Of a DNA stretch of 64,000 nt, positions 1-44,587 are shown piece after piece. The stretch's first letter is position 1; every line of letters begins with the position of its first letter. This DNA is from Candidatus Tagabacteria bacterium. Its GTDB lineage: Bacteria; Patescibacteriota; Minisyncoccia; GCA-002779875. The stretch spans positions 9,857 through 73,856 of the forward strand of contig CAWGAO010000008.1 of NCBI GenBank assembly GCA_963820595.1. The letters are read 5' to 3'. The notes below the pieces were generated by a model, which saw only the letters and a list, made by a program, of their open reading frames with translations, made no database searches and was not told the origin of the DNA. The position numbers were made by a program, and so were the translations under genes.

Positions 1-375
1 GCTCTGGGGAATCGACATCTTAACGGGATGGCTGAAACCCAAACTTAAAGCTAAGGCCGAACCTTCCTTTGTCGCGCGATAGCCGACTCCTTCGATTACA
101 AGGACTTTACTGAATCCTTTAGTAACGCCGTCAATCATATTGCGAACGTGAGAAGCGTAAGTTCCCCATAAAGAAACGGTCTCTTTGGCCCGTCTTATTT
201 TTTTTACCTTGTTTGGTTTCAAACTTATCATATCCGGGTTAACGGAAATGATAATGTCGTCTTTAAAATGCCGACTGGTTTCGCCAAGAGGACCTTTGAC
301 GGTCAATAATCCGTTTTCTATTTTTACGGAAACGCCCTCTGGAATCATGATTGGTTTTTTACCTAAACGCGACAT
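1..375 (-). CDS. rplF: 50S ribosomal protein L6, 3' end cut by window edge
   Basis: rc translation from ATG at 373-375 gives MSRLGKKPIMIPEGVSVKIENGLLTVKGPLGE..., typical L6 N-terminus; position downstream of rpsH. Confidence 0.85.
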   Translation of the reverse strand, partial: MSRLGKKPIMIPEGVSVKIENGLLTVKGPLGETSRHFKDDIIISVNPDMISLKPNKVKKIRRAKETVSLWGTYASHVRNMIDGVTKGFSKVLVIEGVGYRATKEGSALALSLGFSHPVKMSIPQS

Positions 376-573
376 GCCAAAATTATATGAACGTTAGTGA
401 ATAATAATTTTGAGCACCCGCCCAATTTTTTAACAACCCTATCAAACCGAAAAAGTCCAACATTTTGTTCCTATTCATTTTTTTATTTTTCATCATTGTT
501 ATCATAAAAATTTGGGCGGGTAAGGTTTTACAGTCGCGATTTGTCGCTTCGTTCCAAATCGCGAGTAAAGCCC
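376..573 (-). repeat. mosaic intergenic module: conserved leader box ending at rplF ATG, inverted arms (acccgcccaattttt / aaaatttgggcgggt), palindromic unit with GAACGAAGCGA loop next to rpsH stop
   Basis: repeated architecture seen ~20x in window; nested inverted repeats read directly. Confidence 0.7.
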
Positions 574-963
574 TTACCAAATCTTGCACAACACTTCGCC
601 TCCGACTTTTTCTTTAATTGCCTCTTTATTCGTCAAAAGACCTTTCGGCGTCGAAAGAATCGTCATACCGAAACCCTGCCTGATAGGTTTTATTTCTTTT
701 AGCGGCAGATAAACGCGGCACGAAGGTTTTGAAATGCGGGCGATATGGACAATCGCCGCTTTGCCATTTTCATCATAAGACAAAACCAGCTCGATTGTCT
801 TTTTATTCTTTTTTCCCCGCCGATTTATTTCTTTGATGTAATCGGTTCTTAAAAGAACCTTCGCAACCTCCATCTTTAATTTTGAATAAGGAATTACCAC
901 CGCTTCTTTTTTTACGGCTTGGGCATTTCTTATTTTTGTAAACATGTCGGCGATTGGGTCCAT
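574..963 (-). CDS. rpsH: 30S ribosomal protein S8
   Basis: ORF-track protein MDPIADMFTKIRNAQ... is canonical S8. Confidence 0.9.
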   Translation of the reverse strand: MDPIADMFTKIRNAQAVKKEAVVIPYSKLKMEVAKVLLRTDYIKEINRRGKKNKKTIELVLSYDENGKAAIVHIARISKPSCRVYLPLKEIKPIRQGFGMTILSTPKGLLTNKEAIKEKVGGEVLCKIW

Positions 964-1167
964 GCCAAAATTATATGAACGTTAGTGAATAATAATTTCG
1001 AGCACCCGCCCAAATTTTTGAATTTGTCTCTGCCGAATAAAAATATTCTGGTTGCCATTTTTCATATTTCATAAAATGTAAATCTTAAAGATAATTCAAA
1101 AACTTGTGGCGGGTAAGGTTTTACAGTCGCGATTTGTCGCTAACACTCCAAATCGCGGGCCAAGCCA
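964..1167 (-). repeat. mosaic intergenic module (leader box + covarying arms + palindromic unit)
   Basis: near-identical 50-nt leader to 376-427; arms cacccgcccaaattttt / caaaaacttgtggcgggt. Confidence 0.7.
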
Positions 1168-1353
1168 TTACCAGCTTGATTTCTTTACTCCAGGAATCCT
1201 GCCTTCGTTGGCGAATTCCCTGAAACAAATCCGGCACATGTCGAAATCGCGCATATAGCCTCTTTTTCTGCCGCAACGAAAACATCGCCGCACAACGCGG
1301 CTTTTGTATTTAGGCTTCTTTTGACTTCTTGCGATTACCGATGTCTTTGCCAT
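1168..1353 (-). CDS. rpsN: 30S ribosomal protein S14 type Z (zinc-binding, 61 aa)
   Basis: [33 protein letters not shown]...CRICFRE, CxxC..CxxC. Confidence 0.9.
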
Positions 1354-1439
1354 TTTTGTTTACGAGTGCTAGCGAGTAATTACAAAAATGAGCACCCCGC
1401 TCAAATTTTGCCGCGCTAATCACTCATTATTAATAAATA

Positions 1440-1685
1440 AAGATAAATGTTGTTTATCTCTCGCCGCCTGCGCGTCCCGAACCCCGCTACTATAAATCCT
1501 TCGGATTTAAGTACGGGGCGAGTAGCTTTTAACTACTCTTGGGCGACCTGCCCCGTAGGGAACGCGAAGCGTTATCCTTCGGGGAGCGGGCGGCTATTGC
1601 GCTTCCTCGCAAAATTTGTGCGGGGTCGCCATGTTCTAGAATATAACGGATTCCAGTTATTTTTGCAACACTGACTGAATAAAAT
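1440..1685. repeat. GC-rich structured repeat, copy of family containing CTACGGGGCAGGTCGCCC core (other copy 58380-58560)
   Basis: ~200 nt alignable to rc of 58400-58560 with compensatory substitutions in stems. Confidence 0.5.
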
Positions 1686-1693
1686 TTAAAGAG

Positions 1694-1772
1694 CTTGACC
1701 CCGTTAGAGGCAAGACGCCTTTGGCGTCTGCCGCATTTTCAATGCGGGCCTCTAACGGGGTTGACAAATTTT
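1694..1772 (+). mobile_element. MITE-like palindromic element (ccccgttagagg...cctctaacgggg) ending in outward TTGACA
   Basis: terminal inverted repeats; family of >=7 copies in window. Confidence 0.5.
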
Positions 1773-1829
1773 CCAGTTATGATAGCATAAAATCGGCTTG
1801 AAAAATCAAAACAAAAGGAGGCAAAAACA

Positions 1830-2153
1830 ATGAAAAAGATTGGAAAGATTCTGTTGCTAATTGCAATATTAGCAGTTTATTTGAACTTCGGATGGATGAT
1901 GGGCGCATATTACGCCGACCACGGCTTACCTAAAGCCGAGCAAGGAGTAACCACTTTAGGCAAATTTATATGCGGGCCAAATGCCTGGATGTCTAACGAA
2001 AGCGGGTCTCGTCTCTCGTGGTGTGTTATGTCCTCAATCTGCTGGCCCTTTGGGATGGTTATCTGCGGAGTTAGCTGGATTGTTTACGGCATTTATTATC
2101 TCCTCTGGTTCATTTTTGCCGGCGGAATTGTCAAAACCCTCGGCCTCATCTAA
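1830..2153 (+). CDS. small membrane protein (107 aa), antisense orientation inside the ribosomal operon
   Basis: SD aaaaggagg 8 nt upstream of ATG; two to three hydrophobic helices; followed by hairpin terminator. Confidence 0.6.
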   Translation: MKKIGKILLLIAILAVYLNFGWMMGAYYADHGLPKAEQGVTTLGKFICGPNAWMSNESGSRLSWCVMSSICWPFGMVICGVSWIVYGIYYLLWFIFAGGIVKTLGLI

Positions 2154-2182
2154 ATTAAATTTGACCTAAACCTGATTTAGGT

Positions 2183-2217
2183 CATTAAAAGCCTGCGCTC
2201 AAAAAGCCGGGCTTTTT
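2183..2217 (+). terminator. rho-independent terminator (aaaaagccgggcttttttt)
   Basis: GC stem plus T-run directly after ORF 1830-2153. Confidence 0.6.
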
Positions 2218-2220
2218 TTA

Positions 2221-2413
2221 TGATTGATTTTCTTAGCGAGCGAAGCGAGTTTTGAAAATCATCACCCCCTCTTTTACACTCTCACTCTGTTGCTTCTTTT
2301 TACCATAAGAAATTTTTTGCTTCAAACGCCGTTTAAAATATCCTCGTCTTGTCGTTGTTAAAAGAGGGGGTTCTCAAAAAATATAGTCGTCCCTCGACTT
2401 CGCTCGGGACTCC
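2221..2413 (+). repeat. inverted (+ orientation) copy of mosaic module: palindromic unit (GAGCGAAGCGA loop), arms accccctcttttac / gttaaaagagggggt, leader-like GGTTCTCAAAAAATATAGTCG, second palindromic unit abutting rplE stop
   Basis: direct reading; same order of parts as + strand modules at 41971-42171 and 44245-44488. Confidence 0.65.
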
Positions 2414-2953
2414 TTATTTTTTGGAAAATGGAAATCCTAAAAGGCGAAAAAGTTCAAGGGCTTCTTTTTTTGTTTTTGCGCTGGTGACTATCGTCGCCTG
2501 AAAACCAAAAATCATTTTGATTTCTTCTTCTCCTATTTCCGGAAATATCGTGTGTTCCTTGATGCCGATGCTAAAATTCCCCGCCTCGTCAACGGCATCC
2601 GGATTCAATCCCCTGAAGTCGCCGATTCGAGGAATGGCGATGGCAATGAGTCTGTCCAAAAAATCGTACATTCTCTGACCGCGCAAGGTAACCGAGTAGC
2701 CGGCGAGAGCGCCTTGGCGGATTTTGAAAGACGCGATTGATTTTTTGGCCGGCCGTTTTGCCGGTTTCTGCCCGGCAATCAAAGCCAATTGCTTTTCGAT
2801 AACCTCAATCTGCTTTTCGTCTTTAATGGAACCGACGCCCGTATTAACGACGACTTTAACGATTTTGGGAACGGCCATATCGTTTTTATATCCGAATTTT
2901 TCTTTCATCTTCGGAACCGCTATTTTTTTGTATTTTTCCTTAAGCATTTGCAT
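2414..2953 (-). CDS. rplE: 50S ribosomal protein L5
   Basis: protein ...GQKPAKRPAKKSIASFKIRQGALAGYSVTLRGQRMYDFLDRL... canonical L5. Confidence 0.9.
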   Translation of the reverse strand: MQMLKEKYKKIAVPKMKEKFGYKNDMAVPKIVKVVVNTGVGSIKDEKQIEVIEKQLALIAGQKPAKRPAKKSIASFKIRQGALAGYSVTLRGQRMYDFLDRLIAIAIPRIGDFRGLNPDAVDEAGNFSIGIKEHTIFPEIGEEEIKMIFGFQATIVTSAKTKKEALELFRLLGFPFSKK

Positions 2954-3137
2954 AATAGATTTTTTGAATGAGCGAAGTGAATTTTAGAAAATCATCACCC
3001 CGCCCTCTAAGCACAAATAATTCCTTTTAATTTTATTTCTTACATTAAACATCATCTTCGTAATTTCTCCAATTCTTCACGCATAGAGGGCGGGGTTCTC
3101 AAAAAATATATTCACTTCGTTCATTATTTTTTGGAAC
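2954..3137. repeat. bidirectional module: leader-like box facing rplE ATG on - strand and a second leader-like box facing + strand, arms accccgccctctaagcac / gcatagagggcggggt
   Basis: ATTCACT-containing leader on both sides of the arm pair. Confidence 0.6.
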
Positions 3138-3166
3138 TTGACAAATCTTTTTTTAATTGCTATAAT
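3138..3166 (+). promoter_or_regulatory. consensus sigma70-type promoter TTGACA-17-TATAAT
   Basis: exact hexamers with 17-nt spacer, 45 nt upstream of SD-bearing ORF at 3215. Confidence 0.6.
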
Positions 3167-3214
3167 TAAATTAGCTTGAAAATTGAATAACTTTTATCAA
3201 AGGAGGTGGCTTAA

Positions 3215-3460
3215 ATGAAGGTTGTAATTCCAACGGGGGTCATTTTGACTATTATCGGCTTTCTGGCGTTCAGCGGATTGCCGAATATTTGGCAAAAGAT
3301 CGTTATGTGGCTGCTGGTCGCGGGAACTTTGGTTGGCATGGTCATGATGGGCCGGTATTGTTCTATTTTTTGCCGTCGCAATCATTGTTTGGCCGATTAC
3401 GGCTTCTCTGAAGTCCTGCGTTCCCAAGAAATAGTCCTTACGCTTCCTTCAAATATTTGA
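3215..3460 (+). CDS. small membrane protein (81 aa)
   Basis: SD aaaggagg then ATG; hydrophobic helices. Confidence 0.5.
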   Translation: MKVVIPTGVILTIIGFLAFSGLPNIWQKIVMWLLVAGTLVGMVMMGRYCSIFCRRNHCLADYGFSEVLRSQEIVLTLPSNI

Positions 3461-3754
3461 CCCGCACTTTTTGCAAACGCGGGTCTTATTTTTTCCAAGA
3501 ACCTTATAACCGGCCCGTCTCGGTTTGTTGCAGGTCGGACAAATCAACATCACATTCGAAGCCCTTAACGGCATCGGCACCTGGATTACCTGCCCCTTTT
3601 GACCTTGCTTTTTTGAACGGCTGTGCTTTTTCCTTATATTCACTCCCTCAACTACGACAACATCGCCTGTCGGGAAAACTTTAAGAACTTTCCCGGTTTT
3701 TCCACGATCTTTTCCTGAAATTGCCATTACATTATCATTTTTGCGAATTTTCAT
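3449..3754 (-). CDS. rplX: 50S ribosomal protein L24 with C-terminal Cys4 zinc-ribbon-like tail
   Basis: MKIRKNDNVMAISGKDRGKTGKVLKV... KOW motif; tail CPTC...CKKC. Confidence 0.85.
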   Translation of the reverse strand: MKIRKNDNVMAISGKDRGKTGKVLKVFPTGDVVVVEGVNIRKKHSRSKKQGQKGQVIQVPMPLRASNVMLICPTCNKPRRAGYKVLGKNKTRVCKKCGSNI

Positions 3755-3782
3755 AAATTATTAATGGAGAACAGTTCTCCAT

Positions 3783-4154
3783 CTAAACAACCTCCGGCGC
3801 TAAAGAAATAATTTTCGCGTATCCCCGTTCGCGAAGCTCTCTGGGCATGGGCCCAAAAATACGGCCTGCTTTCGGCTCCTGAGTTTTCGCCTCAAGAATT
3901 ATCACGGCATTATCGTCAAAACGCACATACGAACCGTCTTTTCTGCGGTAAGGCTGGCGCTGACGGCAAACTACCGCTCTAAGCACATCTTTTTTCTTCA
4001 CTGCCTTTCTCGGCTCCGCGGATTTCACGGAAACAACCACAATGTCGCCTATGCGGGCATATCGCCTGCGGCTTCCGCCCGGCACTTTAATAACCTGCAC
4101 GAGTTTTGCCCCGCTGTTATCGGCAACACCTACCATTGAACGAGTTTGAATCAT
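3783..4154 (-). CDS. rplN: 50S ribosomal protein L14
   Basis: [24 protein letters not shown]... canonical L14. Confidence 0.9.
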
Positions 4155-4341
4155 GCCAAAATTATATGAACATTAGCGAATAATAATTTTGCGCACCGAG
4201 CACATAATTTATAGCAACCTTTTTATTAAGATGTTCGAAATTTTTACTAAATCTTTTTTTGAAACTTCACTAAATTTTTCATAAAATTATGTGCTCGGTA
4301 AAGGTTTGGCGCCTATATTTTCTCGTCTAAAACTCGAAAAT
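4155..4341 (-). repeat. mosaic intergenic module (leader box ending at rplN ATG; arms accgagcacataatttat / ataaaattatgtgctcggt; hairpin)
   Basis: arm sequence differs from other copies but the two arms still match each other. Confidence 0.65.
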
Positions 4342-4573
4342 CTAGGCCAATCCCTTTACTTCCCAATGCTTGCCTCTCGACCTTGGTTTTGTTTCCTGAA
4401 TTATCACTTTATCGCCGACCTTATACTCGTTTTTCTCATCGTGCGCCTTATAGCGTTTGCTTGCTTTTCATATATTTTCCGTAAAGAGGATGTTTTGTAT
4501 AGCGCTACACCTCAACGACAACCGTTTTTGCCATTTTATCGGAAACAACAACTCCTTTTAATTTCTTTGCCAT
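4342..4573 (-). pseudogene. rpsQ: 30S ribosomal protein S17, reading frame broken by an in-frame TAG and one frameshift (probably sequence error)
   Basis: rc translation MAKKLKGVVVSDKMAKTVVVEV*RYTKHPLYGKY...; after a 1-nt shift ...[32 protein letters not shown]; expected gene-order position between rpmC and rplN. Confidence 0.7.
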
Positions 4574-4673
4574 ATGATTGATTTTCTTAATGAGCGAAGC
4601 GAGTTTTGAAAATCATCACCCCCTTCTTTTCGCGCAAGCGCGCAAAAGGAGGGGGTTAAGAAAAACATAATCG
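4574..4673 (-). repeat. mosaic module, leader variant containing a palindromic unit (rc GAGCGAAGCGA loop) ending at rpsQ ATG
   Basis: arms aaccccctccttttgcgcgc / gcgcgaaaagaagggggtg. Confidence 0.6.
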
Positions 4674-4862
4674 CTATCGCTCTTTGTTTTTCATTAAAGT
4701 TATAATTCTCGCGATATCTTTTTTTATTTCACGGGCGGCTTTCGTATTTTTGATTTTGCCATGCCCCATCTCAAAACGGAATTTTCTCAAAGCCTCACGC
4801 TTGTCTTTTAGAAGAGCAGCAAGCTCAATTTCGGTTTTTTCTCTTAATTCTTTTATTTTCAT
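4674..4862 (-). CDS. rpmC: 50S ribosomal protein L29
   Basis: MKIKELREKTEIELAALLKDKREALRKFRFE... Confidence 0.85.
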   Translation of the reverse strand: MKIKELREKTEIELAALLKDKREALRKFRFEMGHGKIKNTKAAREIKKDIARIITLMKNKER

Positions 4863-5047
4863 GCCATAATTATATGAACGCTAGTGAATAATAATTTTCG
4901 CACCCCGCCTCTAACGCTTGCGCTCTTTTTATTAAATGATTATCTTGATATTTGCTTCATAATTTTTGTTTAAATTCGTGATAGAGGGCGGGTAAAGGTT
5001 TGGCAACAGAATTTTTCGCCTACGGCTCAAAATTCTGTCCAATTCGC
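4863..5047 (-). repeat. mosaic intergenic module (leader box at rpmC ATG; arms caccccgcctctaacgc / gatagagggcgggt; 3' hairpin)
   Basis: direct reading. Confidence 0.65.
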
Positions 5048-5467
5048 TTAATCTCTCGCAATGATTTTTGTTTTAATGGGAAGTTTTGCCGCGGCTTTTC
5101 GAAGGGCTTCGCGAGCTAAATTTTCCGGAATGCCGTCGATTTCAAAAAGCATCCGTCCCGGCTTAACCGGAACGACATAGCCAGCCGGGTCGCCTTTTCC
5201 GCCGCCCATAGTTACTTCCGGCGGCCGCTGGGTAATGGGTTTGTCCGGGAAAATGCGAATCCACATTCTTCCGCTTTTCTGGACGTAGCGAGTCATAACT
5301 TTTCGAACTGCCTCAATTTGCTGGCTGGTAATCCATTTTTCGCCTTCCGACTTAAGCCCGAAAGAGCCAAAAGCAAGAGTGGTCCCCCGGGTTGCCACTG
5401 TCGGCTTTGCGCGATTTGTCCTCCCGCGCTGCCATTTTCTGTATTTTACTTTCTTTGGATACAGCAT
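5048..5467 (-). CDS. rplP: 50S ribosomal protein L16 (start taken at MLYPKKVKYRK)
   Basis: ...KYRKWQRGRTNRAKPTVATRGTTLAFGSFGLK... canonical L16. Confidence 0.85.
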   Translation of the reverse strand: MLYPKKVKYRKWQRGRTNRAKPTVATRGTTLAFGSFGLKSEGEKWITSQQIEAVRKVMTRYVQKSGRMWIRIFPDKPITQRPPEVTMGGGKGDPAGYVVPVKPGRMLFEIDGIPENLAREALRKAAAKLPIKTKIIARD

Positions 5468-5621
5468 AAATACAAACTTTAGATTAGCAAAATAACCCTT
5501 ATCGCGCAAGCCCCATACATTCGTATGCGTTACGAGGTAAGTCCGTGTTTGCTTTTCTCGGATTTTCGTAGTAAAGATAAGAGAGAAAACTTCTTTTAAA
5601 AAACGGACGGAGGATACGTTA

Positions 5622-6176
5622 TTGTCCAGACATTATGAAAATAAAAAAAGACTCCGCCATTCTCGCAACCGCGGGGAAAAATACGATTCTCATCATCCTT
5701 ATCCGAATTCCAGGACGAAAAAAGGAGATTTTGGAAAATTCGAAGAGCTCCTTTGCTCATTAGAACTGAATACCCTGAAGAAAAAACACAGAGCCTGGCA
5801 CCAATTATTTCTCAATTTTTTTCCCGAAGAAGTGATTTTGGCGATAAAAAAAGCTTTCAGGGCGGGGAAAAAGACTCCTCCCGAAATAATCTCTTTTATC
5901 AAGACTACTCTCGGCCACAGCCAAACTCCGATTGAAGCGACCAAGGCGGATCTGGAAGCCTGGTCCAAGATATTCGGCGCTCGCCAAAACCCGGATAAAA
6001 TTAAGAAAATCATTTTTGAAAACTGGACTTATCCCGACGTCAGAACCATTATCACTAACGGCAAAATTACCAGCGTACTGGTCTTTCTCCCTCGCATACC
6101 AAAAGACCTTGAAATCAGCGTCATCGTTTCCAAAAAAAGCGCGCATTTAAAAATCAGCGAAAAAATTAAAACTTGA
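5622..6176 (+). CDS. hypothetical protein (184 aa), TTG start with SD ggacggagg
   Basis: best-supported ORF among overlapping candidates; no recognisable domain. Confidence 0.4.
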   Translation: MSRHYENKKRLRHSRNRGEKYDSHHPYPNSRTKKGDFGKFEELLCSLELNTLKKKHRAWHQLFLNFFPEEVILAIKKAFRAGKKTPPEIISFIKTTLGHSQTPIEATKADLEAWSKIFGARQNPDKIKKIIFENWTYPDVRTIITNGKITSVLVFLPRIPKDLEISVIVSKKSAHLKISEKIKT

Positions 6177-8873: not shown

Positions 8874-8894
8874 ATATCAGGAAAGGACGTACGT

Positions 8895-8960
8895 TTGACT
8901 TTAGCACGCCAAATTGCTAGAAATTAAGGAAGAAAATTCTTTGAAAAAGCCATCTCGAAA
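8895..8960 (+). promoter_or_regulatory. conserved promoter/5'UTR box P2 (TTGACTTTAG..CAAATTGCTAGAAAT..GAGAAAATTCTTTGAAAAAGG)
   Basis: five near-identical copies upstream of unrelated genes (8895, 10909, 12645, 14093, 14925). Confidence 0.55.
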
Positions 8961-10904: not shown

Positions 10905-10965
10905 TTTGACTTTAGGGCACTAAATTGCTAGGAACTAAAGAGAAGAAATCTTTTCAGCCAAAGGC
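10905..10965 (+). promoter_or_regulatory. P2 conserved promoter/5'UTR box
   Basis: tttgactttagggcactaaattgctaggaactaaagagaagaaatc. Confidence 0.5.
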
Positions 10966-11034: not shown

Positions 11035-12218
11035 GATGAGGGAAGTGGTAATAACCGGCGCGGTAAGAACAGCTATCGGTAATTTTCTCGGCGCATTGAG
11101 TTCTTTCAGCGCAACCGAGTTGGGAGGGCTGGTGATAGAAGAGGCGATAAAAAGATCCGGATATCAAAAAAGAGGATGTTGATGAAGTGATTATGGGAAA
11201 CGTCCTTTCAGCCGGACTGGGACAAAATCCGGCTCGCCAAGCGATGATTAAGGCGGGACTTCCAATGTCGGGAGGAGCCCTGACAATAAATAAAGTTTGC
11301 GGCTCCGGCTTGAAAGCTGTTATGCTGGCGGCTCAAGTCATCATGGCAGGAGACGCGGAAGTGATTGTCGCGGGCGGAATGGAAAGCATGAGCCGAACCC
11401 CTTATTATCTGGAAAACGCAAGAACGGGATATCGGCTTGGGAATGGAAAACTAGTGGACGGGATGGTTCATGACGGCCTTTGGGATGTGGTGAACGATTA
11501 TCCTATGGGGTTCACCGCCGAAATACAGTCGAAAAAATTTAACATCAGCCGGGAAGAACAGGACCGATTTGCTTACGAATCAAATCTTCAAGGCGATGAA
11601 GGCCATACGAGAAGGAAAATTCAAGGAAGAAATCCTCCCGCTCTCAATTCCGCGCGGAAAAGGAGAATTGATTTATTTTGAAATCGATGAGGGACCCCGC
11701 GACCCAGACCTCCAAAAGATGGCCAATTAATGTCCGTCTTTAAAGAAGGCGGCGTTGTCACCGCGGCAAACTCCTCTAAAATCAGCGATGGAGCAAGCGC
11801 TCTGGTCGTGATGTCGAAAAAGAAAGCCAAATCTCTGGGGATGAGGCCTATGGCGAAAATCATAGCACAGGCGGCAGCGGGCGTGGAATTGGAAGATGTC
11901 TTGGTCGCTCCGATTCAATCGATTCCGAAAGTTCTCAAAAAGGCGGGGCTATCTATCGAGGAGATCGATCTTTTTGAAATCAACGAGGCTTTTTCCGCGA
12001 CAACTTTGGCCGTCATCAAAACCTTGGGCATTGATAAAAACGGGTGAATATTCATGGCGGCGCCATCGCATCTGGGCCATCCAATCGGCGCCAGCGGCGC
12101 GAGAATTCTGACCACATTGCTTTACGCGATGAAAGATGGCGGAGCGAAAAGAGGAATGGTTTCTCTTTGTTTGGGCGGCGCGGAAGCCGTAAGTTTGATT
12201 GTCGAACAGATACCATAA
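11035..12218 (+). CDS. acetyl-CoA C-acetyltransferase (thiolase), at least 4 apparent single-nt frameshifts
   Basis: [21 protein letters not shown]...; ...[22 protein letters not shown]...; ...NVNGGAIA([13 protein letters not shown])... recovered only after frame changes. Confidence 0.75.
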
Positions 12219-12268
12219 ATAAGCGCCGTAAAAAATAAGAAAATTCTTTAGAAAAAGGGGGTTAAAAT

Positions 12269-12482: not shown

Positions 12483-12644
12483 TTAATTTGGGCGACTTAG
12501 CGGAAAGAGCTGGAACTCATTATTTCCTTCAATGCCCTCTTAGAACTTGACAAGAACTTTTGGCTTAATATAATTCATTTGAATCACGATAAGAGGCTAT
12601 CCAAAGGGTTTCGTCCCACGGCAATGCCTCTTTTTTTTATCTTG

Positions 12645-12700
12645 ACTCCCGGCTGTCAAATTGCTAGGAATAACTGAGAAATTTCTTTGAAATACGGAGG
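12645..12700 (+). promoter_or_regulatory. P2 conserved promoter/5'UTR box
   Basis: cttgactcccggctgtcaaattgctaggaataactgagaaatttctttgaaatacggagg. Confidence 0.5.
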
Positions 12701-13883: not shown

Positions 13884-14145
13884 AAAAACGAAAAGCACCC
13901 ATTTAGGATGCTTCTCACGTTTAGTATCTCCACTATAGCAAGCTGGTTTTTATTGTCAATATCCACTTTTACCCTACCCCGCTACTCACTATTTCTTCGG
14001 AGAAAAACGGGGTGGGCTACGGGACGCATTCAGAACCCTGGATTGGATACAGGTTAGGAAAGAGTTGGATGATTTCGCCTTGCATTTTGAACAACAATTT
14101 GCTATAAATAACTGAGAAAATTCCTTGAAAAGGAGGAAAAGATTG

Positions 14146-14603: not shown

Positions 14604-14792
14604 GAGAATTTAGCCAGCCCCGCACAACAGTTTGCGGGATTTTTCACAGCAAGCCGCTTCGCGGGAAAGGGATGCGGCTATTCGCCGCCCGCGGCTTGCG
14701 AAACTTTTTATATTTTTCGTGTAATGTAATTTTTCAAAAAGAATGCACGGCAAACTGTATGCGGGGCACTCAATTTTGTAAACAGAAAATCG
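14604..14792. repeat. GC-rich palindrome-rich insertion splitting the duplicated boundary sequence
   Basis: gcaagccgc...gcggcttgc and ccccgcacaac...gcggggcac inverted repeats; flanks are continuous with copy at 13066-13110. Confidence 0.45.
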
Positions 14793-17399: not shown

Positions 17400-17640
17400 T
17401 CTTTTTCTAAAAATCAAGGAGCGTAAGCGACTATGATTTTTGAGAACCCCGCCTTAATTTTACCGTCCACATGTAATCTAAGTTCAGAGAATTAAAAAGT
17501 TTTATTTGCTTGTTGCGAGGCGCGGACGGCGAATAGCCGCACCCCTGCCTGCCGGCAGGCAGGCCTTTTGCGCGAAGCGCCGAGCCGATACATTGGATTG
17601 TAAAATTAAGGCGGGGGTGGATTTACAAAAATTTTTTCGC
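17400..17640 (+). repeat. mosaic module copy (palindromic unit with GAGCGTAAGCGA loop; arms ccccgccttaatttta / taaaattaaggcgggggtg)
   Basis: direct reading; not next to a translation gene. Confidence 0.55.
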
Positions 17641-17731
17641 GTGCTATTCTTTGGCCAGAAAAATTAAGCTGTTTGATCTTTGTAAAGCATAAAAACCTCA
17701 AAATAAAATATCAAGATTGGAGGGATTTAAG

Positions 17732-18877
17732 ATGGATTTTGAATTAAATGAAGAACAAAAACTGATCCAAAACAGCGTCAGAGATTTTGTAAAAAAGGAA
17801 ATCGCGCCCATTGCGGACGAAATCGACAAGAAAGACGAATTTCCGAGCGAAATAGTGCAAAAGATGGCTGGCCTGGGAATACTAAGTATCCCTTTACCGG
17901 AAGAATTTGGCGGAATGGGCGGCGACATCTTAAGTTATGTTTTAGCCCTCGAAGAAATATCTAAAGTTTCTGTGGCGGTAGCAATTACCGTTGCCGTCCA
18001 CACATCTCTTGTTTCCGCTCCGATTAACGAATTCGGAAACCGGAACCAAAAAGAAAAATATCTTGTGCCGCTGGCAAAAGGCGAAAAATTGGGGGCGTTT
18101 CTGCCTGACAGAACCTAATGTCGGCTCTGACGTCGGCTCCATAGAAACAACCGCCGAATTCAAAAAGACATGACCATTACCTCTTGAACGGAACAAAGAT
18201 TTTCATAACAAACGGCGGAGTGGCCGAAACTTATCTTGTTTTTGCCGCAACCGACAACCAGGAAAAAAAGCCGAAAAGATTGAGCGCCTTCATTATCGAA
18301 AAAGGGATGCCGGGGTTTTCTTTCGGCACCCGATACGAAAAAATGGGTTGGCGAGGCTCTGAAACCCGCGAGCTTATTTTTGAAGACGTGAAAATTCCTC
18401 TTGAGAATTTGTTGGGCCAGCGAGGCGACGGATTTCTCGAGGCGATGAAAATTTTGGACGGCGGGAGAATCAGCGTCGCGGCATTATCTCTCGGTTTGGC
18501 CGGCGGAGCCTTGGAAGCCGCCTTAAAATACGCAAAAACACGGCGGCAATTTGGGAAAACTCTTGCCGAATTTCAGGCAGTCCAAATTTTGCTTGCCGAT
18601 ACGGCGACGGAGATAGAAGCTGCCAGATATTTAATCTGGAAAGCTATTCAGCTTAAAGAAAAAAACAAACCGTATCGTAAAGAAGCGGCGATGGCAAAAC
18701 TTTTCAGCTCGGAAATGGCCGTAAGAACAGTTTCAAAAGCTCTCCAAATCCACGGAGGCTCCGGATACATGAAGGATTCTCCGGTGGAACGATTCTACGG
18801 GATGCTAAGGTGCTGGAAATTGGTGAAGGCACTTCGGAAATCCTTCGGTTGCTAATTGCCAGTGAATTAAGAAATTG
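17732..18877 (+). CDS. acyl-CoA dehydrogenase, 3 apparent single-nt frameshifts
   Basis: ...GAF/CLTEPNVGSDVGS... and ...ERFY/RDAKVLEIGEGTSEILRLLIASELRN recovered by frame changes; one clearly a TTT/TT homopolymer. Confidence 0.75.
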
Positions 18878-22159: not shown

Positions 22160-22285
22160 GTAGTCCCGATAATTCTAAATTTGAATTATCGAGGATCCTC
22201 GATTTTCTAGCGAAAATCGGGATGAAATGGACCCCGAAGTATAAACCTTCGGTTTAACTACGGGGCAGGTATCACTTAAAAATAA
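22160..22285 (+). ncRNA. structured leader upstream of tRNA-Arg (three-way stem arrangement, shares aactacggggcaggt with repeat family at 1440/58380)
   Basis: outer stem cccctgtagt/actacgggg enclosing two hairpins; preceded by TTGTCA-16-TAAAAT. Confidence 0.35.
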
Positions 22286-23903: not shown

Positions 23904-24044
23904 AAGAACGCGGGCTGGAGTCCCGACGCGCTTCGCGGTCGGGGTCCCGACTGAAACGTCGGGATATGATGGCATCCCCGAAGGAGTCGCCTTCGGCGAC
24001 CCTACGGGGAAAATCGGGACACGCCACGCCCGCCCACCTTTTAT

Positions 24045-25701: not shown

Positions 25702-26890
25702 ATGCAAATCGCAAAACGAATCAATTCATTGGGAACGGAACAGGCTTTTCATGTTTTGGCGCGGGCAAAAGAAATGGAAAGGAAAGGAATCGATATGATT
25801 CACATGGAAATCGGCGACACAGATTTTGACACGCCGAAAATTATAAAAAATGCCTGCTATAAGGCCCTTGATGAAAATAAAACCCATTATCTCCCATCGC
25901 AAGGACTTTTGGAATTACGGCAGGAAATCGCGAAATATATTTCAAAAACGCGGAAAATTCCGGTTGCGCCGGAAGAAGTGGTAGTGACGCCCGGCGGTAA
26001 GCCGATTATTTTTTATACTATTTTGGCGACAGTTAATCCCGGCGACGAAGTTATCGTTCCCAATCCCGGATTTCCGACTTATGAATCGGTTGTGAATTTT
26101 ATCGGCGCGAAAGCCGTTCCCTTGCCGATACTCGCGGAAAACGATTTCCAAGTCGATTTGAAACAACTCGCCAAACTCATTACCAAAAAAACAAAACTGA
26201 TTATCGTTAATTCCCCTCATAATCCGACCGGAGGAATTTTGACTCATCAAAATCTGGCCGGCATCGCGAAACTCGCAAAAAAACACAATCTTTGGGTGCT
26301 TTCCGACGAAGTTTACGACCGAATTAATTTTCGAAAGGAAAATTTGAAAGCATTGCGTCTTTGCCGGGAATGAAAAAACGAACGATTATTCTCAACGCTT
26401 TCACTAAAACTTATTCAATGAGCGGCTGGCGCTTGGGATACGGCGTAATGCCGGCAAGAACTGGCGAAAGTAATCGCCAACTTAATCAACAATTCCATTT
26501 CCTGCACGACGAATTTTATCCAATGGGCCGGAATTGCCGGCTTAGCTGCGCCGGAAAGCACAATCGCAAAAATGCGCAAAGAACTGAAAAAACGGCGCGA
26601 CTTGCTGGCTAAAAGAAATGAATGAAATTGCCCGGCGTAAAATGCCACGTGCCGAAAGGAACGATTTATCTTTTCCCCGATATCCGCGGAACCGGAAAAA
26701 CCAGCCGAGAAATTTTCGATATTCTTTTCAACAAAGCTCATATCGCCGCTTTGTCGGGCGCGGCTTTCGGAAAATACGGAGAAGGATTTTTGCGGTTGTC
26801 ATTCGGCAGTCTGCCAGTTCCAAAAATCAAAGAAGCAATCCAGCGGATGAAAAAAGTCTGGCCCCTACTCGCTAAAGTTTCGCAGAGCCG
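25702..26890 (+). CDS. class I/II aminotransferase, 2-3 apparent frameshifts
   Basis: NSPHNPTGG, FTKTYSMSGWRLGY, GFLRLSF motifs across frames. Confidence 0.7.
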
Positions 26891-26895
26891 AAAAT

Positions 26896-27581
26896 CTATG
26901 GCAAAGAAAAATAGTTTTAAAAAAAGGATTCTTGTCAGCATCACGGGTAAAACAGACCGCGAGTGGCAGAATAAAATGAAAGAAATAAATCGGCTCAAAA
27001 TCCCGCGAGTGGCTTTATTTTTGGAGTTCTTCAATAGAACGCAAAAAAAGAAAATATATCGAGCGCTTTTAAGGTCACAAATCAAAGAAATCCCCTTAGT
27101 ACACGTCAGAAACGACATGACCCGCGACGAGTTCGCTTTCCTGATAAAAAATTTTGGCACCCGCTATTTTACTATTCACGAAGACGGTTTCAAGTATCTC
27201 GGCAAATGGCAAGGTTTCCATAAAAAACTGTTTCTGGAAATGAATTATGACGGCCACATCGCCGGAAACGTCAAAGTCAAAAAGATAGGCGGGTTTTGCA
27301 TAGACTTATCCCATTTTAAAGCCGCGGAAGAAAGGTGGAAAAAAGACTTTCAATACATCCTACGGAGAAATAAAATTCATAAATACTTCGGCTGCAATCA
27401 CTTAAACGGATTTTCATATAAGACAAACAGTGATTTGCACACGGTGAAAAGCTCAAAGGATTTTGATTATTTAAAAACCTTACCTAAGTTTCTTTTCGGA
27501 AAGGTTATCGCCTTGGAAGTTTTCAACGGCATTACCGACCAGTTGAAATTCAAAAAGTATCTGGAGAAATTCCTAAAATAA
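26896..27581 (+). CDS. unknown ~228-aa domain, in frame with aminotransferase 3' end (possible fusion or missed stop)
   Basis: ATG GCA AAG AAA at 26896 continues same frame with no stop. Confidence 0.35.
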
Positions 27582-29135: not shown

Positions 29136-30500
29136 CTACTGGATAGTATAAAAACAAAAATCCCGTCCCGCAATTTGACGGGACGGGATTAATTCTGTTT
29201 GATTTTTAAAAATTTTACGGCCAAAGGCCTCTTGCTGAGCGGCTTCGGCTACCCGACCAACGCCCAAAAGATAAGCCGCCAAACGGGTAGTGATTTTCTT
29301 CCCATTTTTTTCGTAGATATCAACCACGCTCTTAAAAGCCTTATCCATGATTTTTTTCAACTTTTCGTTGACATCCGCTTCTTCCCAATAAAGTTCCTGG
29401 ATATTCTGGACCCATTCAAAATAAGAAACCGTCACTCCGCCGGCATTTGCCAGAATATCGGGGATAACAAAGATTCCTTTTTGATGCAAAATATCATCCG
29501 CCTCAAGCGTTGTCGGCCCATTTGCGCCTTCCGCAATAATCTTTGCCTTGATTTGCGGCGCATTATCGGCAGTAATGGCGTTTTCCAAAGCGCAAGGTGC
29601 GAGAATGTCGCAAGGCAAAAGCAATAAATCATCGTTTGAAATCTGGAAAGATCCTACAGTTAGAATTGACATAATTTACAACTGAACCATTCGCTTTTTT
29701 GACCTTTAAAACTTCATCTACATTAAGACCAGCGGGATTACAAATCCCACCCCCAGCTGTCGGAAACAGCGATAATTTTCACTCCTTCATTTTGAAGCAG
29801 TTTTGCCGTCCAATAGCCGACATTGCCGAATCCCTGAACCACTGCTGTTGCGGTTTTCGGATCAATTCCCAGATAATTCATCGCCTGCAAAGCGGTATAC
29901 ATACAGCCGCGGCCGGTTGCCGCTTCTCTTCCGAGAGAACCGCCATCACGCTAAAGGTTTGCCGGTTACCACTCCCGGACAAGGATGGCCGAGCAAGCAT
30001 GGAGTAAGTATCCATAATCTCCGCCATTCTTTTAGCATTTGTTCCTACATCAGGAGCGGGAATATCTTTATCCGGGCCAATGATGTGAGATATGGCGTAA
30101 GTGTATCTTCGTGTTAAATTCCGCAATTCGTCTTCTGACATTTCTTTCGGATTGCAGATAATTCCTCCCTTGGCTCCGCCAAAAGGAACATTCACAACTG
30201 CGCATTTCCAAGTCATCCACATTGCCAATGCCTTAACTTCATCCAAATTAACATCCGGATGATAACGTATGCCTCCTTTAGCCGGTCCCCGCGCAAAACT
30301 GTGCTGTACGCGATAGCCCGTAAAAACTTTAACATGGCCATCATCCATTTTCATAGGAAGAGGAACTTCAAAAATGTTAGCGGGCCCCCGGATAGAAAAT
30401 CTGGTTTCTTCATCTAACTTCAAAAAATCTGCTGCTCGGTCGAATTGCTCTAATGCTGTTAGATAAGGATTCTGTTTATTGTGTTTGTTTTTCCTGGCAT
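29136..30500 (-). CDS. gdhA: glutamate dehydrogenase, 2-3 apparent frameshifts
   Basis: [15 protein letters not shown] and C-terminal GDH blocks found on three frames. Confidence 0.75.
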
Positions 30501-30553
30501 ATCTTTCTACCTCCTTGTAGAATTAGTGCTTAGCATCTCCGGCAAGCCCCGTT

Positions 30554-30657
30554 AGAAGTTCAACTATAGCTTGAGATTAAGCATCCTCCGAAAGCGAATC
30601 CGCCTAATGGCTCTATCTCTAACTAAAATATAATTTATTGAAAACCTCTAACGGGGC
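30554..30657 (+). mobile_element. MITE-like palindromic element, tandem copy 1
   Basis: ccccgttagaag...cttctaacgggg termini; internal aagcgaatccgcctaatggc. Confidence 0.55.
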
Positions 30658-30730: not shown

Positions 30731-30852
30731 AACCCCGTTAGAAGTTCAGCTATGGTCTGGAGTTAAGCAACCTCCTAAAGCGAATCCGCCTAACGGCTTT
30801 GTTTTTAAATAAAATATGGGTTAGATGAAAACTTCTAACGGGGTCAACCCCC
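30731..30852 (+). mobile_element. MITE-like palindromic element, tandem copy 2 (~90% identical to copy 1)
   Basis: same termini and internal block. Confidence 0.55.
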
Positions 30853-41408: not shown

Positions 41409-41502
41409 TGAATTCGCCCGCGATTTTGAGCGAAGCGAAGAATCGCGGTTACAAAATGCGAAAACATTAAATTATTAGTCGTTTAACTCCTTAATTTTTG
41501 GC
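41409..41502 (+). repeat. minimal module: palindromic unit (GAGCGAAGCGA loop) + AT-rich leader ending at rpsG ATG, without arm pair
   Basis: cccgcgattttgagcgaagcgaagaatcgcgg ... taactccttaatttttggcATG. Confidence 0.6.
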
Positions 41503-41970: not shown

Positions 41971-42171
41971 TGACTTTGCTCGCTATTTGGAGCGTTAGCG
42001 ACAAATTGCGGCCGCAAAACATTACCCGCCTAAGTTTTTGCGAAATAATTAAAATATGAAAAATCTAAAAAAGAAAAATTTTCAAAAATTTAATTCGTCT
42101 TTGGAGTATACCCGCAAAAATTTGGGCGGGTGTTCAAAAATTATAGTCATTAACATTCCTTAATTTTTAGC
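41971..42171 (+). repeat. mosaic module (palindromic unit, arms cgcctaagtttttgcg / cgcaaaaatttgggcg, leader GGTGTTCAAAAATTATAGTCATTAACATTCCTTAATTTTTAGC-ATG)
   Basis: direct reading. Confidence 0.65.
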
Positions 42172-44244: not shown

Positions 44245-44488
44245 TGGCTTGGCCCGCGATTTGGAGTGAAGCGACAAATTGCGGTTGCCAAATATTACCC
44301 CGCCCTTTTGGGCGCGAGATGTTATAATAAAACTATGGATATATTAAGTTTAAAAATTATAAAACGGCAATGCGCTTTAGTTATAACGGGATGCGCCTAT
44401 TCGGCGCCCGCGCATTGCGGAATTGAGTATGGCGCCAAAAGGGCGGGGTGCTCAAAAATTATAGTCGCTTAACTCCTTAATTTTTGGC
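44245..44488 (+). repeat. mosaic module (palindromic unit GGAGTGAAGCGA loop; arms ccccgcccttttgggcg / cgccaaaagggcgggg; leader ending at ATG 44489)
   Basis: direct reading. Confidence 0.65.
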
Positions 44489-44587
44489 ATGTCTGACGAC
44501 CAAGAACAAAAAGAAAAACTTTTCTCCGAAGAGGCCTTAGAAGACGATTTGGAAATCGAAGCAGATGTAGAAAGTTTGCCACTTTAA
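44489..44587 (+). CDS. small acidic peptide (32 aa) with its own module leader
   Basis: MSDDQEQKEKLFSEEALEDDLEIEADVESLPL; leader identical in type to rpsG/fusA leaders. Confidence 0.3.
   Translation: MSDDQEQKEKLFSEEALEDDLEIEADVESLPL

Follow-up and report, generated by a model that had tools for sequence, protein, structure and literature searches.

What separates the ribosomal-protein genes between rplP and rplF in this Candidatus Tagabacteria genome, and what might the separating DNA do? In the window, i.e., the whole stretch of 64,000 nucleotides (nt) analysed here, the genes follow the canonical order rplP-rpmC-rpsQ-rplN-rplX-rplE-rpsN-rpsH-rplF on the minus strand, with successive stop-to-start gaps of 185, 101, 187, 28, 495, 1060, 204, and 198 nt. 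As the original prediction held, seven of the eight gaps (101-1060 nt) are occupied by repeat copies, and only rplN-rplX is short. The matching junctions in six relatives (L5 80-84% identical) mostly measure -5 to 13 nt, and the same junctions are mostly compact in 80 more distant Patescibacteria, so the long punctuation of this otherwise compact operon is real and unusual.

One cassette consists of three abutting hairpins, SL1, SL2, and SL3, filling the gap between the upstream stop codon and the downstream start codon (Table 1), and the expected common layout, stop/SL1/SL2/SL3/ATG, was recovered by RNAfold at every long junction. SL1 is three-tiered, and the upstream stop codon often provides its first bases (the first three in 14 of 28 cases); in one case, the stop is TGA and has TCA opposite it on the partner strand, and the inner stem is replaced wholesale with the outer tiers kept. 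SL2 is a CCCCGCC/GGCGGGG clamp with a variable interior, the tip of which ranges from 1-3 nt to an AT-rich insert of ~85-95 nt; the arms of long forms pair as near-perfect duplexes of ~20 bp, and those of minimal forms over only 7 bp. SL3, corresponding to what had been described as a 45-nt box, has an AT-rich stem, which GCTC...GGC closes, and ends at the downstream ATG or has the ATG within it. The linkers between adjoining hairpins are 0-1 nt, and about one unpaired base would be left between stop and start once the hairpins are folded. While this layout recurs, the idea of one shared module was too simple: there are at least two module types, A and B, and the module before rpsN is a variant. 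Moreover, the box is itself a hairpin, and the palindromic unit following the stop codon in type B is the box unit inverted (opposite-strand matches at 3088, 2363, and 4661).

Table 1 Repeat cassettes and neighbouring features in the window.
Feature	Position	Strand	Parts and remarks
J1, rpsH to rplF, type A	376-576	-	SL1 521-576, starts with TAA, the rpsH stop; SL2 417-520, 90-nt AT-rich interior with mini-ORF; SL3 376-416, abuts rplF ATG at 373-375; covariance-model score 71.8 bits
J2, rpsN to rpsH, type A	964-1170	-	SL1 1114-1170; SL2 1005-1113; SL3 964-1004; abuts rpsH ATG
Variant before rpsN	1349-1668	-	SL2 1395-1625; SL3 1349-1394; covariance-model score 27.2 bits
Opposite-strand cassette, rplE-rpsN gap	1698-2215	+	hairpin 1698-1761; promoter TTGACA-16-TAGCAT; AAGGAGG; 107-aa membrane-like ORF 1830-2153
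J3b, after rplE, type B	2220-2416	-	inverted unit 2371-2416, contains rplE stop, model match 2363-2425 on + strand; SL2 2265-2370; SL3 2220-2264
J4, before rplE, type B	2954-3135	-	inverted unit 3096-3135; SL2 2998-3095; SL3 2954-2997; rplE ATG 4 nt after SL3
Second opposite-strand cassette, rest of 495-nt gap before rplE	3138-3460	+	promoter; Shine-Dalgarno sequence; 81-aa ORF
rplN to rplX	3755-3782	-	sole conventional junction, 28 nt; small local hairpin inside
J6, rpsQ to rplN, type A	4155-4358	-	SL1 4299-4358, rpsQ frame extends 14 nt into it before TAG stop; SL2 4196-4298, arms diverged yet still complementary; SL3 4155-4195
J7, rpmC to rpsQ, short type B	4574-4676	-	degenerate inverted unit 4656-4676; SL2 4619-4655; SL3 4574-4618, abuts rpsQ ATG
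J8, rplP to rpmC, type A	4863-5050	-	SL1 4993-5050, rplP stop included; SL2 4903-4992; SL3 4863-4902
rpsL to rpsG	41409-41502	+	same repeat family, without SL2
rpsG to fusA	41971-42171	+	same repeat family
After fusA	44245-44488	+	same repeat family; then 32-codon acidic ORF
rplB to rpsS	49670-49865	+	same repeat family, type A
rpsS to rplV	50200-50383	+	type B; rplV ATG inside SL3 3' strand
Before 4Fe-4S hydrogenase-type subunit gene	53464-53759	+	second palindrome nested in SL3 5' strand
Before Fic-family gene	57079-57145	-	ATG inside SL3 3' strand
Orphan repeat unit	58594		no ATG

The module copies align on computation, as anticipated. The 36-nt box recurs in four copies at <=2 mismatches (0 expected), the GAGCGAAGCGA unit in two, with a more divergent third at 2951-3007, and a covariance model of the box yields 20 matches in the window at E<=1. 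Near-identical units lie at 12 start codons in the 64 kb, together with six inverted units, and the start codon is abutted or contained by all 12 sense units of the window and by all four extra model matches in metagenome loci. Base pairs in SL2 comprise 417 Watson-Crick, 7 G-U, and 4 A-C pairs, and those in SL3 382, 1, and 1, respectively. The structure is conserved: pairing holds in 95.4% of SL3 cells, and its covariation score of 0.317, compared with 0.087 in shuffles, is reached by 0 of 500 shuffles. Nested palindromes are present in both SL2 and SL3.

The two largest gaps also house independent gene cassettes on the opposite strand (1761-2153 and 3138-3460), both of which bring a promoter, a Shine-Dalgarno sequence, and an open reading frame (ORF) of their own. 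The cassette in the rplE-rpsN gap is outside the repeat family; its 107-aa ORF has no Pfam match and is followed by a possible stem-loop and T-run, read by eye and not listed by the terminator scan. Next to it, the SL3 of J3b is an orphan, followed by no ATG and only by the end of the inserted cassette. The variant before rpsN keeps a promoter, TTGCAA-17-TATATT-7 at 1626-1668 (1668-1640 in the promoter scan), and then a relic ATGGCGA, and the same promoter with ATGGCG occurs in five relatives. Its SL2 carries a nested GC-rich structured insert, and the working rpsN start, ATGGCAA, lies inside the 3' strand of SL3. The 7-nt ATGGCRA repeat at rpsN is the only case resembling a target-site duplication.

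The window also has copies outside the spc cluster: five junctions of the rpsL-fusA and rplB-rplV clusters carry one, as do the sites ahead of the hydrogenase and Fic genes. Searching related genomes for the box, as had been suggested, gave 44 further copies in a metagenome scan, immediately in front of the ATG of a wide range of housekeeping genes, on 44 contigs from independent projects. The host is a candidate-phyla (Parcubacteria) genome, and the carriers otherwise include related groundwater bacteria. Specificity for translation-apparatus operons does not hold, as the unit also precedes genes for PilT/PilB, NusA, SSB, FtsE/X, SecE, UvrA, TIM, HypC, a Fic protein, and a hydrogenase subunit. 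Only two real model matches were found in 81 kb of the six close relatives and five in 853 kb of the 80 more distant loci; presence and absence vary among close relatives, and both orientations occur. The loop sequence tracks the genome, not the junction, the S8 module having TTCACTAACGTTCA here and ATTCGCTTCGCTCAT in L083, L088, and L100, and copies are more alike within one genome than across genomes at the same junction. In addition, a long module of ~200 nt is shared before PilT, S8, and TIM genes in L087, L088, and L126. The family spreads or homogenises within genomes and takes nested insertions in its hairpin tips. It has no Rfam family match, and we found no published description of it.

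Scans of the modules gave no consistent promoter or terminator signal, and the sites found barely exceed shuffled background. In three loci (L134, L091, and L124), a promoter-like site is found upstream of the unit, as is an Rfam L10 leader in L117 and the retained promoter before rpsN in the window; the unit is therefore most likely co-transcribed, probably as a leader or intercistronic spacer. No Shine-Dalgarno sequence precedes the ATG downstream of the cassettes, nor is there one at any of 10 module-free translation genes, while other genes carry AAGGAGG. Leaderless-type promoter spacing is seen for rpsN (TATATT-7-ATG in five relatives) and rpsJ (TAAAAT-6-ATG). In 18 of 22 long forms, a mini-ORF begins within the tip of SL2 and ends 7-11 nt short of the real ATG, compared with 6.15 expected from shuffles, although common descent of the copies means that the shuffle P overstates their independence.

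Genome-wise likeness, variable presence, both orientations, nested insertions, and near-pure Watson-Crick stems therefore point to behaviour like that of REP/BIME elements or MITEs. The reading we favour, tentatively and as something short of probable, is that the cassettes are lineage-specific mosaic palindromic repeats of this kind, the survivors being those that fold clear of translationally coupled junctions. The cassettes would be co-transcribed with the operon, which would remain a single transcription unit. Since the ribosomal-protein cistrons of this lineage lack Shine-Dalgarno sequences and normally lie -5 to 13 nt apart, coupling by termination and reinitiation may be suggested, and operon-first genes appear leaderless. 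Persisting insertions would then be those folding fully out of the way, so that stop and start codons stay physically close. In long forms, the mini-ORF could relay ribosomes through SL3, yet such a relay cannot be general because minimal forms have no mini-ORF. Several observations sit uneasily with the favoured reading. No transposase or recombinase partner was found by Pfam on 10 window ORFs or by approximate IS200/RAYT queries against 1.25 Mb, and the copies show no general target-site duplication. Initiation should be hindered, not left unaffected, by a hairpin that ends at -1 or encloses the ATG, and a passive selection filter would not obviously predict stop/start framing as near-exact as that seen in >40 copies.

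Such framing would suit a dedicated, selected translational device, in which the stop at the SL1 base hands ribosomes to the ATG at the SL3 base (shunt or 70S re-initiation), or in which the cassette is an initiation region independent of Shine-Dalgarno sequences, like the E. coli rpsA leader. The stop and start at the two ends of three hairpins with linkers of zero or one base, the compensated TGA/TCA change, the missing Shine-Dalgarno sequence, the end of the mini-ORF shortly before the ATG, and the presence of the unit at operon-start genes and after the L10 leader all agree with this proposal. Still, close relatives express the same genes with no cassette, inverted units and ATG-less orphans exist, and concerted evolution with nested insertions looks selfish, not functional, making such a device rather unlikely. 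A similarly doubtful proposal is RNA punctuation, in line with the heavy RNA processing raised in the original prediction, where the SL2 duplex of a single transcript would be cut, e.g., by RNase III, and SL1 and SL3 would shield the upstream 3' end and the downstream 5' end, giving stable mono- or oligocistronic, possibly leaderless-like mRNAs. The long SL2 duplexes and the positions of SL1 and SL3 at the gene ends fit, as do the promoter spacings that suggest leaderless starts in the clade, and RNase III is known to cleave the Correia elements of Neisseria. However, the minimal SL2 lacks the length that RNase III needs, several copies hold the ATG inside the SL3 stem and would lose it to a cut at the stem base, and the stems are not enriched in G-U pairs, as selection at the RNA level would be expected to give.

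The per-gene transcription units of the original prediction, with each box driving a leaderless transcript of the next gene, are very unlikely. Type A boxes do carry TATAAT 6 nt before the ATG, and leaderless architecture is plausible in the clade, yet TATAAT is missing from type B, type C, and L083-type boxes, a usable -35 element is lacking, and both the scans and the position of the unit downstream of real promoters and the L10 leader speak against it. It is extremely unlikely that the palindromes are integron-like or other recombinase sites bounding each gene. An imperfect palindrome does follow each gene, and SL1, in which the basal tiers are conserved, some bases bulge out, and the tip varies, recalls attC; however, the genes are core ribosomal ones in canonical order, no RYYYAAC/GTTRRRY core sites were seen by eye, and no integrase appeared among the 10 window ORFs searched with Pfam. 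An assembly artefact or chimera is scarcely credible. Many window genes are frameshifted (rpsQ, rpsS, tuf, and several metabolic genes), and repeats of 200 nt can cause contigs to be joined wrongly (the module and S8 are common to L088 and L083, which differ upstream), but the genes keep their canonical order over all eight junctions, and the cassette recurs in the 44 contigs from independent projects and, in L083, at the orthologous junction between rpsN and rpsH.

Among known systems, REP/BIME/REPIN elements of Enterobacteria and Pseudomonas resemble the cassettes as short palindromic units in either orientation, mosaic with other motifs, co-transcribed at extragenic and intra-operon sites with a genome-specific consensus, and forming inverted doublets that flank a spacer, as in type B. 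In contrast, the cassettes have no GTAG-type conserved head and no RAYT was found; they are framed exactly by stop and next start codon, not merely downstream of genes, and have three ordered hairpins with defined roles, plus a mini-ORF in long forms. Correia elements (Neisseria MITEs) and BOX/RUP (Streptococcus pneumoniae) are likewise modular or inverted-repeat elements of ~100-200 bp, gene-adjoining, co-transcribed, with long hairpins and presence/absence polymorphism between strains, and BOX is also modular (A-B-C). Yet there is no sequence relationship, the cassettes lack a TA duplication, and those elements, to our knowledge, neither lie at a fixed distance from start codons nor occur inside ribosomal-protein operons. 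Integron attC sites share the imperfect palindrome after each gene, with conserved base, bulges, variable tip, and a stop codon often inside, but here neither core-site sequences nor an integrase were seen, and the genes are core genes in conserved order. The E. coli rpsA initiation region is highly structured, with three successive hairpins leading straight up to a translation gene's start codon and no Shine-Dalgarno sequence, as here, but it is single-copy and regulatory, not a dispersed repeat, and has AU-rich single-stranded linkers instead of 0-1 nt. Hairpin invasions of organelles include sponge mitochondrial RHEs, fungal double-hairpin elements, and GC clusters. According to one report, the intergenic spacers of a compact organelle genome are filled by selfish repeats that form hairpins (PMC2800124). 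The filling of spacers in an otherwise very compact genome is the shared trait, but the organelles belong to another domain of life, and stop/start framing is not known from them.

The family is thus best read as having colonised housekeeping genes, at their stop-to-start junctions and in their 5' leaders, within a Parcubacteria clade that resembles Tagabacteria. While the near-exact framing may mean a dedicated cassette function, the cassettes would, in the favoured reading, be tolerated passengers, possibly also stabilising mRNA segments.

The genes rplP, rpmC, rpsQ, rplN, rplX, rplE, rpsN, rpsH and the start of rplF occupy the minus strand in the first 5.5 kb of the window, with stop-to-start distances, in that order, of 185, 101, 187, 28, 495, 1060, 204 and 198 nt. 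The repeats that the original prediction had noticed at these junctions proved real on computation: a 36-nt box occurs in four copies with at most two mismatches (none expected), the GAGCGAAGCGA unit in two copies with at most two mismatches and in a more divergent third, and repeat finding retrieved arm pairs at each junction. The modular order was likewise the same at every long junction when folded with RNAfold in gene sense, consisting of the stop codon, a hairpin SL1 (stem CGCGATTT, with a loop resembling GAGCGAAGCGA), a long hairpin SL2 clamped by GC pairs (CCCGCCC...GGGCGGG) and AT-rich inside, a single T, a hairpin SL3 (GCTCAAAATTAT...ATAATTTTGGC) and the ATG. The proposed 45-nt box before the ATG thus exists as a conserved piece, but it is actually SL3 plus the 3' arm of SL2. 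No Shine-Dalgarno sequence was found at the module-preceded starts of the long junctions in the window.

Modules of two types were distinguished. In type B, the element following the stop codon is the SL3 unit inverted, and an SL3 covariance model matches the opposite strand there, so that each of these modules is an inverted doublet enclosing a spacer. The two largest gaps owe their size to unrelated opposite-strand cassettes that are also located there. Three small membrane-like ORFs without any Pfam match were observed inside ribosomal-gene junctions; a strong promoter and AAGGAGG of its own accompany each, and two are antisense to the operon. In relatives, too, insertions concentrate in the rplE-rpsN gap, e.g., two opposite-strand genes in the relative L134.

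Positions of modules, inserts and other features in the window (strand in brackets where given)
Feature	Position	Remarks
Type A modules	376-576; 964-1170; 4155-4358; 4863-5050	
Type B modules	2220-2416; 2954-3135; 4574-4676	
SL3 model matches, opposite strand	3088-3135; 2363-2425; 4661-4691	
Opposite-strand insert	1761-2153	TTGACA-16-TAGCAT, AAGGAGG, 107-aa ORF
Opposite-strand insert	3138-3460	TTGACA-17-TATAAT, AAGGAGG, 81-aa ORF
Small membrane-like ORFs	1830-2153 (+); 3215-3460 (+); about 44590-44890 (+)	
Acidic ORF after fusA	44489-44587 (+)	32 codons, MSDDQEQKEKLFSEEALEDDLEIEADVESLPL
Second palindrome family	1698-1761; 46443-46510; 30547-30631; 30733-30817	ACCCCGTTAGAG...CTCTAACGGGGT
GC-rich structured repeats	1440-1625 (-); 58400-58540 (+); 17500-17600; 14640-14700	CCCCGAAG...CTACGGGGCAGGTCGCCC..., ...GGCGAATAGCC...
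GC-rich structured repeats before tRNA genes	22232-22270; 23976-24014	just upstream of tRNA-Arg, tRNA-Pro
Promoter-like repeat, ~49 nt	8894-8942; 10905-10953; 12641-12689; 14079-14127	TTGACT-N17-TAGAAA/TAGGAA; TATAAA in last copy
Disrupted rpsQ	4355-4573	in-frame TAG about 4506-4508; 4-nt AAGC tandem duplication about 4457-4466
Disrupted rpsS	about 49940	1-nt insertion
Disrupted tuf	about 45790	1-nt insertion
Further broken-gene regions	11187-12238; 17717-18855; 25702-27581; 29136-30423	

SL1 is built in tiers, with an outer stem of TAAAGG/CCTTTA or TAATG/CATTA, a middle stem of TTTGC/GCAAA or TTGGC/GCCAA with a 2-nt bulge, and an inner stem and loop that are swapped wholesale between copies. 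Of 28 intercistronic copies, 14 begin SL1 with the three bases of the upstream stop codon, which in the remaining ones is found from 9 nt before to 22 nt after the SL1 start; in the contig L131, a TGA stop pairs with TCA on the partner strand of SL1. There is no linker between SL1 and SL2, a single T connects SL2 with SL3, and in most copies 0 nt separate SL3 from the ATG, which lies inside the 3' strand of SL3 in rpsN, rplV, the Fic gene and L131 and 2-4 nt downstream in two copies. The interior of SL2 falls into size classes of 1-3, about 21-26 and 76-96 nt, with a few longer.

The cassette is a conserved structured nucleic-acid element, as the SL3 pairs are kept by compensatory changes: 95.4% of cells pair, five pairs show double changes, and the covariation score of 0.317, compared with 0.087 in shuffles, was reached in 0 of 500 shuffles and was lower in slid controls. 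The SL1 tiers covary as well, e.g., TTTGC/GCAAA with TTGGC/GCCAA and AAGG/CCTT with AATG/CATT. The fixed stems contain 417 Watson-Crick, 7 G-U and 4 A-C pairs in SL2 and 382, 1 and 1 in SL3, without the G-U excess expected for an RNA-selected helix, and minimum free energy folds, with G-U and A-C counts of 148 and 16 on the sense strand versus 143 and 16 on the antisense strand, were uninformative on strand asymmetry. Since G-U is as rare as A-C in the fixed stems, the counts there do not separate pairing at the RNA level from pairing at the DNA level. Kissing between the SL1 and SL3 loops was considered, as the loops are complementary, but the same unit in opposite orientations is a simpler explanation, and the loop differences are mostly transitions, including C-A mismatches. 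A boxA/NusB-like reading of TGCTC was rejected because A replaces the U-tract.

The family extends well beyond the spc cluster. In the window, the cassette is also found at the rpsL/rpsG, rpsG/fusA, fusA/next ORF, rplB/rpsS and rpsS/rplV junctions and before a 4Fe-4S hydrogenase-type gene and the Fic gene. The SL3 model gave 20 matches in the 64 kb, comprising 12 sense units, all of which abut or contain a start codon, six inverted left arms of type B modules, an orphan at 58594 and a marginal match at 33818 (E = 0.66) that is probably due to chance. The box after fusA is followed by an acidic ORF and not by tuf, which starts ~600 nt further on with its own promoter. Scanning metagenomes with the pattern GGCGGG(N)TGCTCAAA-N24-34-TTTGGCATG matched 46 contigs, 44 of which show the hairpin together with an ORF that begins at the ATG; four additional model matches that were unselected for ATG each abut or contain a start codon. 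The genes starting at these copies include those for ribosomal proteins S7, S8, S10, S12, S13, S19, L6, L10, L11 and L36, as well as PilT/PilB, NusA, SSB, FtsE, FtsX, SecE, HypC, TrmD, Def, UvrA, TIM, YebC, ScpB and RodA. Folding of the 260 nt upstream recovered the order SL1, SL2, SL3 nearly everywhere, and a scan of viral contigs for the box returned 0 matches. Groundwater samples of the Hainich and Rifle type contain contigs with these cassettes.

Long forms of the cassette carry a mini-ORF, found in 18 of 22 non-redundant copies, which opens at an ATG in the SL2 tip, runs for 20-80 codons through the SL2 3' arm and stops in SL3, in most cases 10-14 nt ahead of the main ATG. With the interior shuffled by dinucleotides, 6.15 such frames are expected, and 18 was reached in 0 of 200,000 simulations, a P value that is optimistic because the copies share descent. 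Even copies with unrelated interiors keep a frame open, and so do copies with either type of arm (...WAGAQ... or ...EGGVLK...). Between homologous pairs there are substitutions but no indels, and pN/pS was 0.3 to 1, in samples that are too small for a dN/dS analysis. Mini-ORFs are also present in distant type B copies and absent from minimal forms. The 68-aa frame across the rpsH-rplF module, used as a protein query, matched only itself, hence the mini-ORFs are not annotated elsewhere; they are missed by small-ORF callers.

Ribosomal protein L5 of the window is ~80% identical to Candidatus Tagabacteria and only 52-62% identical to GTDB representatives. In six closer relatives (L081, L082, L083, L132, L133, L134), most spc junctions measure -5 to 13 nt, and the SL3 model found only two real copies in their 81 kb, namely a full module at the orthologous rpsN-rpsH junction of L083, where rpsH-rplF measures 7 nt, and a copy within the rplP 5' leader of L134. 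The spc junctions of 80 more distant patescibacterial loci are mostly compact except for the variable rplE-rpsN gap, and 853 kb of these loci gave five model matches, all type B-like and at least three at the S3-L16 junction (L009, L043, L015). The repeat family is thus old and widespread, but sporadic, and the colonisation of the window genome is unusually heavy. At the rpmC-rpsQ junction, where the window has a type B module, two close relatives (L083, 5322-5462; L132, 2324-2464) carry a different palindromic module, GCCCAGTAATACA...TATTATTGGGC, with a AAATTTCGAAT...ATTCGAAATT hairpin; the same junctions seem to be used by several unrelated hairpin families. The contigs L088 and L083 have an identical long module and S8 gene in common but differ in their upstream genes; either a genuine rearrangement took place at the repeat, or the repeat gave rise to a chimeric join of the metagenome.

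Other repeats were observed in the window. In a second palindrome family, a TTGACA or TTGAAA -35 box directly follows the copies at 1698-1761 and 46443-46510, and the family looks like a portable hairpin-plus-promoter module. GC-rich structured repeats occur nested in SL2 tips as well as upstream of tRNA genes; they recur in L090, L092, L119 and L134 and have no Rfam match at gathering score. A promoter-like repeat precedes four successive genes. In addition, many genes appear broken, essential ones included, with thiolase, acyl-CoA dehydrogenase, aminotransferase and glutamate dehydrogenase each split into 2-3 ORFs; the cause is either an error in sequencing or assembly, or decay of the genome that went along with the repeat expansion.

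The behaviour of the cassette resembles that of known repeats. Copies in one genome share their loop sequences, which are different in other genomes even at the same junction; the same ~200-nt long form precedes unrelated genes in three contigs (L087, L088, L126), and the tips of SL2 and SL3 hold further, nested palindromes. Together with stems made up almost entirely of Watson-Crick pairs, these are properties of REP/BIME/REPIN or MITE families. As in REP/RAYT systems, there are many extragenic copies of a short imperfect palindrome, often as inverted doublets; however, the GTAG-like 5' head is missing, the conserved SL3/SL1 ends being GGCGGGGTGCTC and TTTGGC. No RAYT was found in stop-to-stop segments of the window and comparison loci (1.25 Mb, including 64 kb of this genome) using IS608 TnpA and E. 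coli RAYT queries, the single weak match being in the unrelated L072. Terminal inverted repeats around an AT-rich core in type B modules (e.g., 2954-3135) and in long SL2 inserts (CCCGCCCAAATTTTTGCG...CGCAAAAATTTGGGCGGG) are MITE-like, yet the copies lack a fixed-length target-site duplication: no general rule emerged at the ends of full modules or of SL2+SL3, the unit directly before the rplP ATG in L134 has no evident flanking repeat, and other copies end at the stop codon and ATG without one. The frequent left-end TAATG was also considered as a duplication and is better explained by stem covariation with CATTA. The sole clear insertion scar, and sole duplication, is at rpsN. Five relatives (L081, L082, L083, L132, L133) have TTGCAA-17-TATATT-7-ATGGCG there, with leaderless spacing, and the window retains this promoter and ATGGCGA at 1626-1668 (-), followed by a ~280-nt SL2+SL3 unit and the working ATGGCAA. 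Pfam identified no transposase in ten window ORFs and no integrase among the ORFs scanned, and integron-like sites are unlikely, as the RYYYAAC...GTTRRRY core sites of attC are missing from the SL1 ends (TAAAGG...CCTTTA, read by eye). Rfam at gathering score yielded only tRNAs in the whole window, and in a scan of 300-5600 at E<=5 the only matches were to miRNA, snoRNA and small-RNA models, at chance level and well under gathering score. Interspersed mosaic palindromes are a known kind of element; a literature search found no description of such elements in Patescibacteria, and the exact stop-to-start framing, the start-codon adjacency without Shine-Dalgarno, the mini-ORF and the colonised ribosomal-protein operon appear to be new.

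Regarding expression, the original prediction that each gene might form its own transcription unit is unlikely. Promoter counts in the two gene clusters barely exceeded the shuffled background (19 versus 9.9±3.9 and 21 versus 14.3±4.0), and terminators in the second region numbered 21 versus 19.1±5.1, but the scans found no consistently placed sites within modules, and the strong promoter matches in 1-6000 belong to the inserted opposite-strand cassettes. Furthermore, the unit lies downstream of promoter-like sites at the window rpsN and in L134, L091 and L124, and the rplJ ATG of L117 is preceded by a complete module that itself comes after an L10 leader matched by Rfam (46 bits against a gathering score of 44), from which it follows that the cassettes are most likely transcribed as spacers or leaders. 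Shine-Dalgarno sequences were found in 0 of 10 module-less translation genes, while AAGGAGG precedes about half of the other genes examined; the native junctions of relatives are very short and likewise lack it, and the window rpsJ promoter at 46511-46547 (+), TTGAAA-16-TAAAAT-6-ATG, has leaderless spacing. Termination-reinitiation and leaderless initiation are established mechanisms, and, judging from spacing, reinitiation coupling within operons and leaderless first genes would fit. Between rpsC (end 50792-51475) and rplP (start 5467), the S10 cluster is separated from the spc cluster, the two lying ~45 kb apart on opposite strands. Relatives (L081, L083, L133, L134) also have a cluster beginning at rplP after unrelated genes, which in L133 include a Zincin_1 gene like that of the window; the clade therefore inherited this split, and it is not a misassembly. 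That the cassettes themselves are an assembly artefact is unlikely.

Our leading reading, held tentatively and at slightly less than even chances, is that of a spreading palindromic repeat family whose surviving copies fold fully into hairpins between stop and start. A folded cassette would keep the two codons about as close as a native 0-13-nt junction, and long forms may contribute a relay mini-ORF. RNase-mediated punctuation, with SL1 and SL3 protecting transcript ends, seems improbable, and we would give a similarly low chance to a positively selected device for coupling or Shine-Dalgarno-independent initiation. More speculatively, and on balance doubtfully, the cassette might be a mobile, self-contained stop-to-start adaptor, i.e., a folded intercistronic RNA that hands ribosomes from the stop to the next start independently of Shine-Dalgarno sequences, via shunting or 70S re-initiation and helped by the relay mini-ORF in long forms; as a portable element, it could also serve as a general leader of this kind for housekeeping genes in this patescibacterial clade.

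Few gene arrays are as compact and conserved as ribosomal-protein operons, whose stoichiometric expression is believed to rely on close translational coupling. In the present case, repeats of a 100-200-nt family occupy seven of the eight junctions of such an operon and precede dozens of other essential genes, always with stop and start codons as their frame, and they probably break or mis-join metagenome assemblies of the clade. If merely tolerated, the cassettes show how far a streamlined genome of the ~1-Mb class can be invaded and provide a structural rule for harmless insertion. If functional, they would represent a portable Shine-Dalgarno-independent initiation or coupling device without precedent in bacteria, which could find use as a genetic part.
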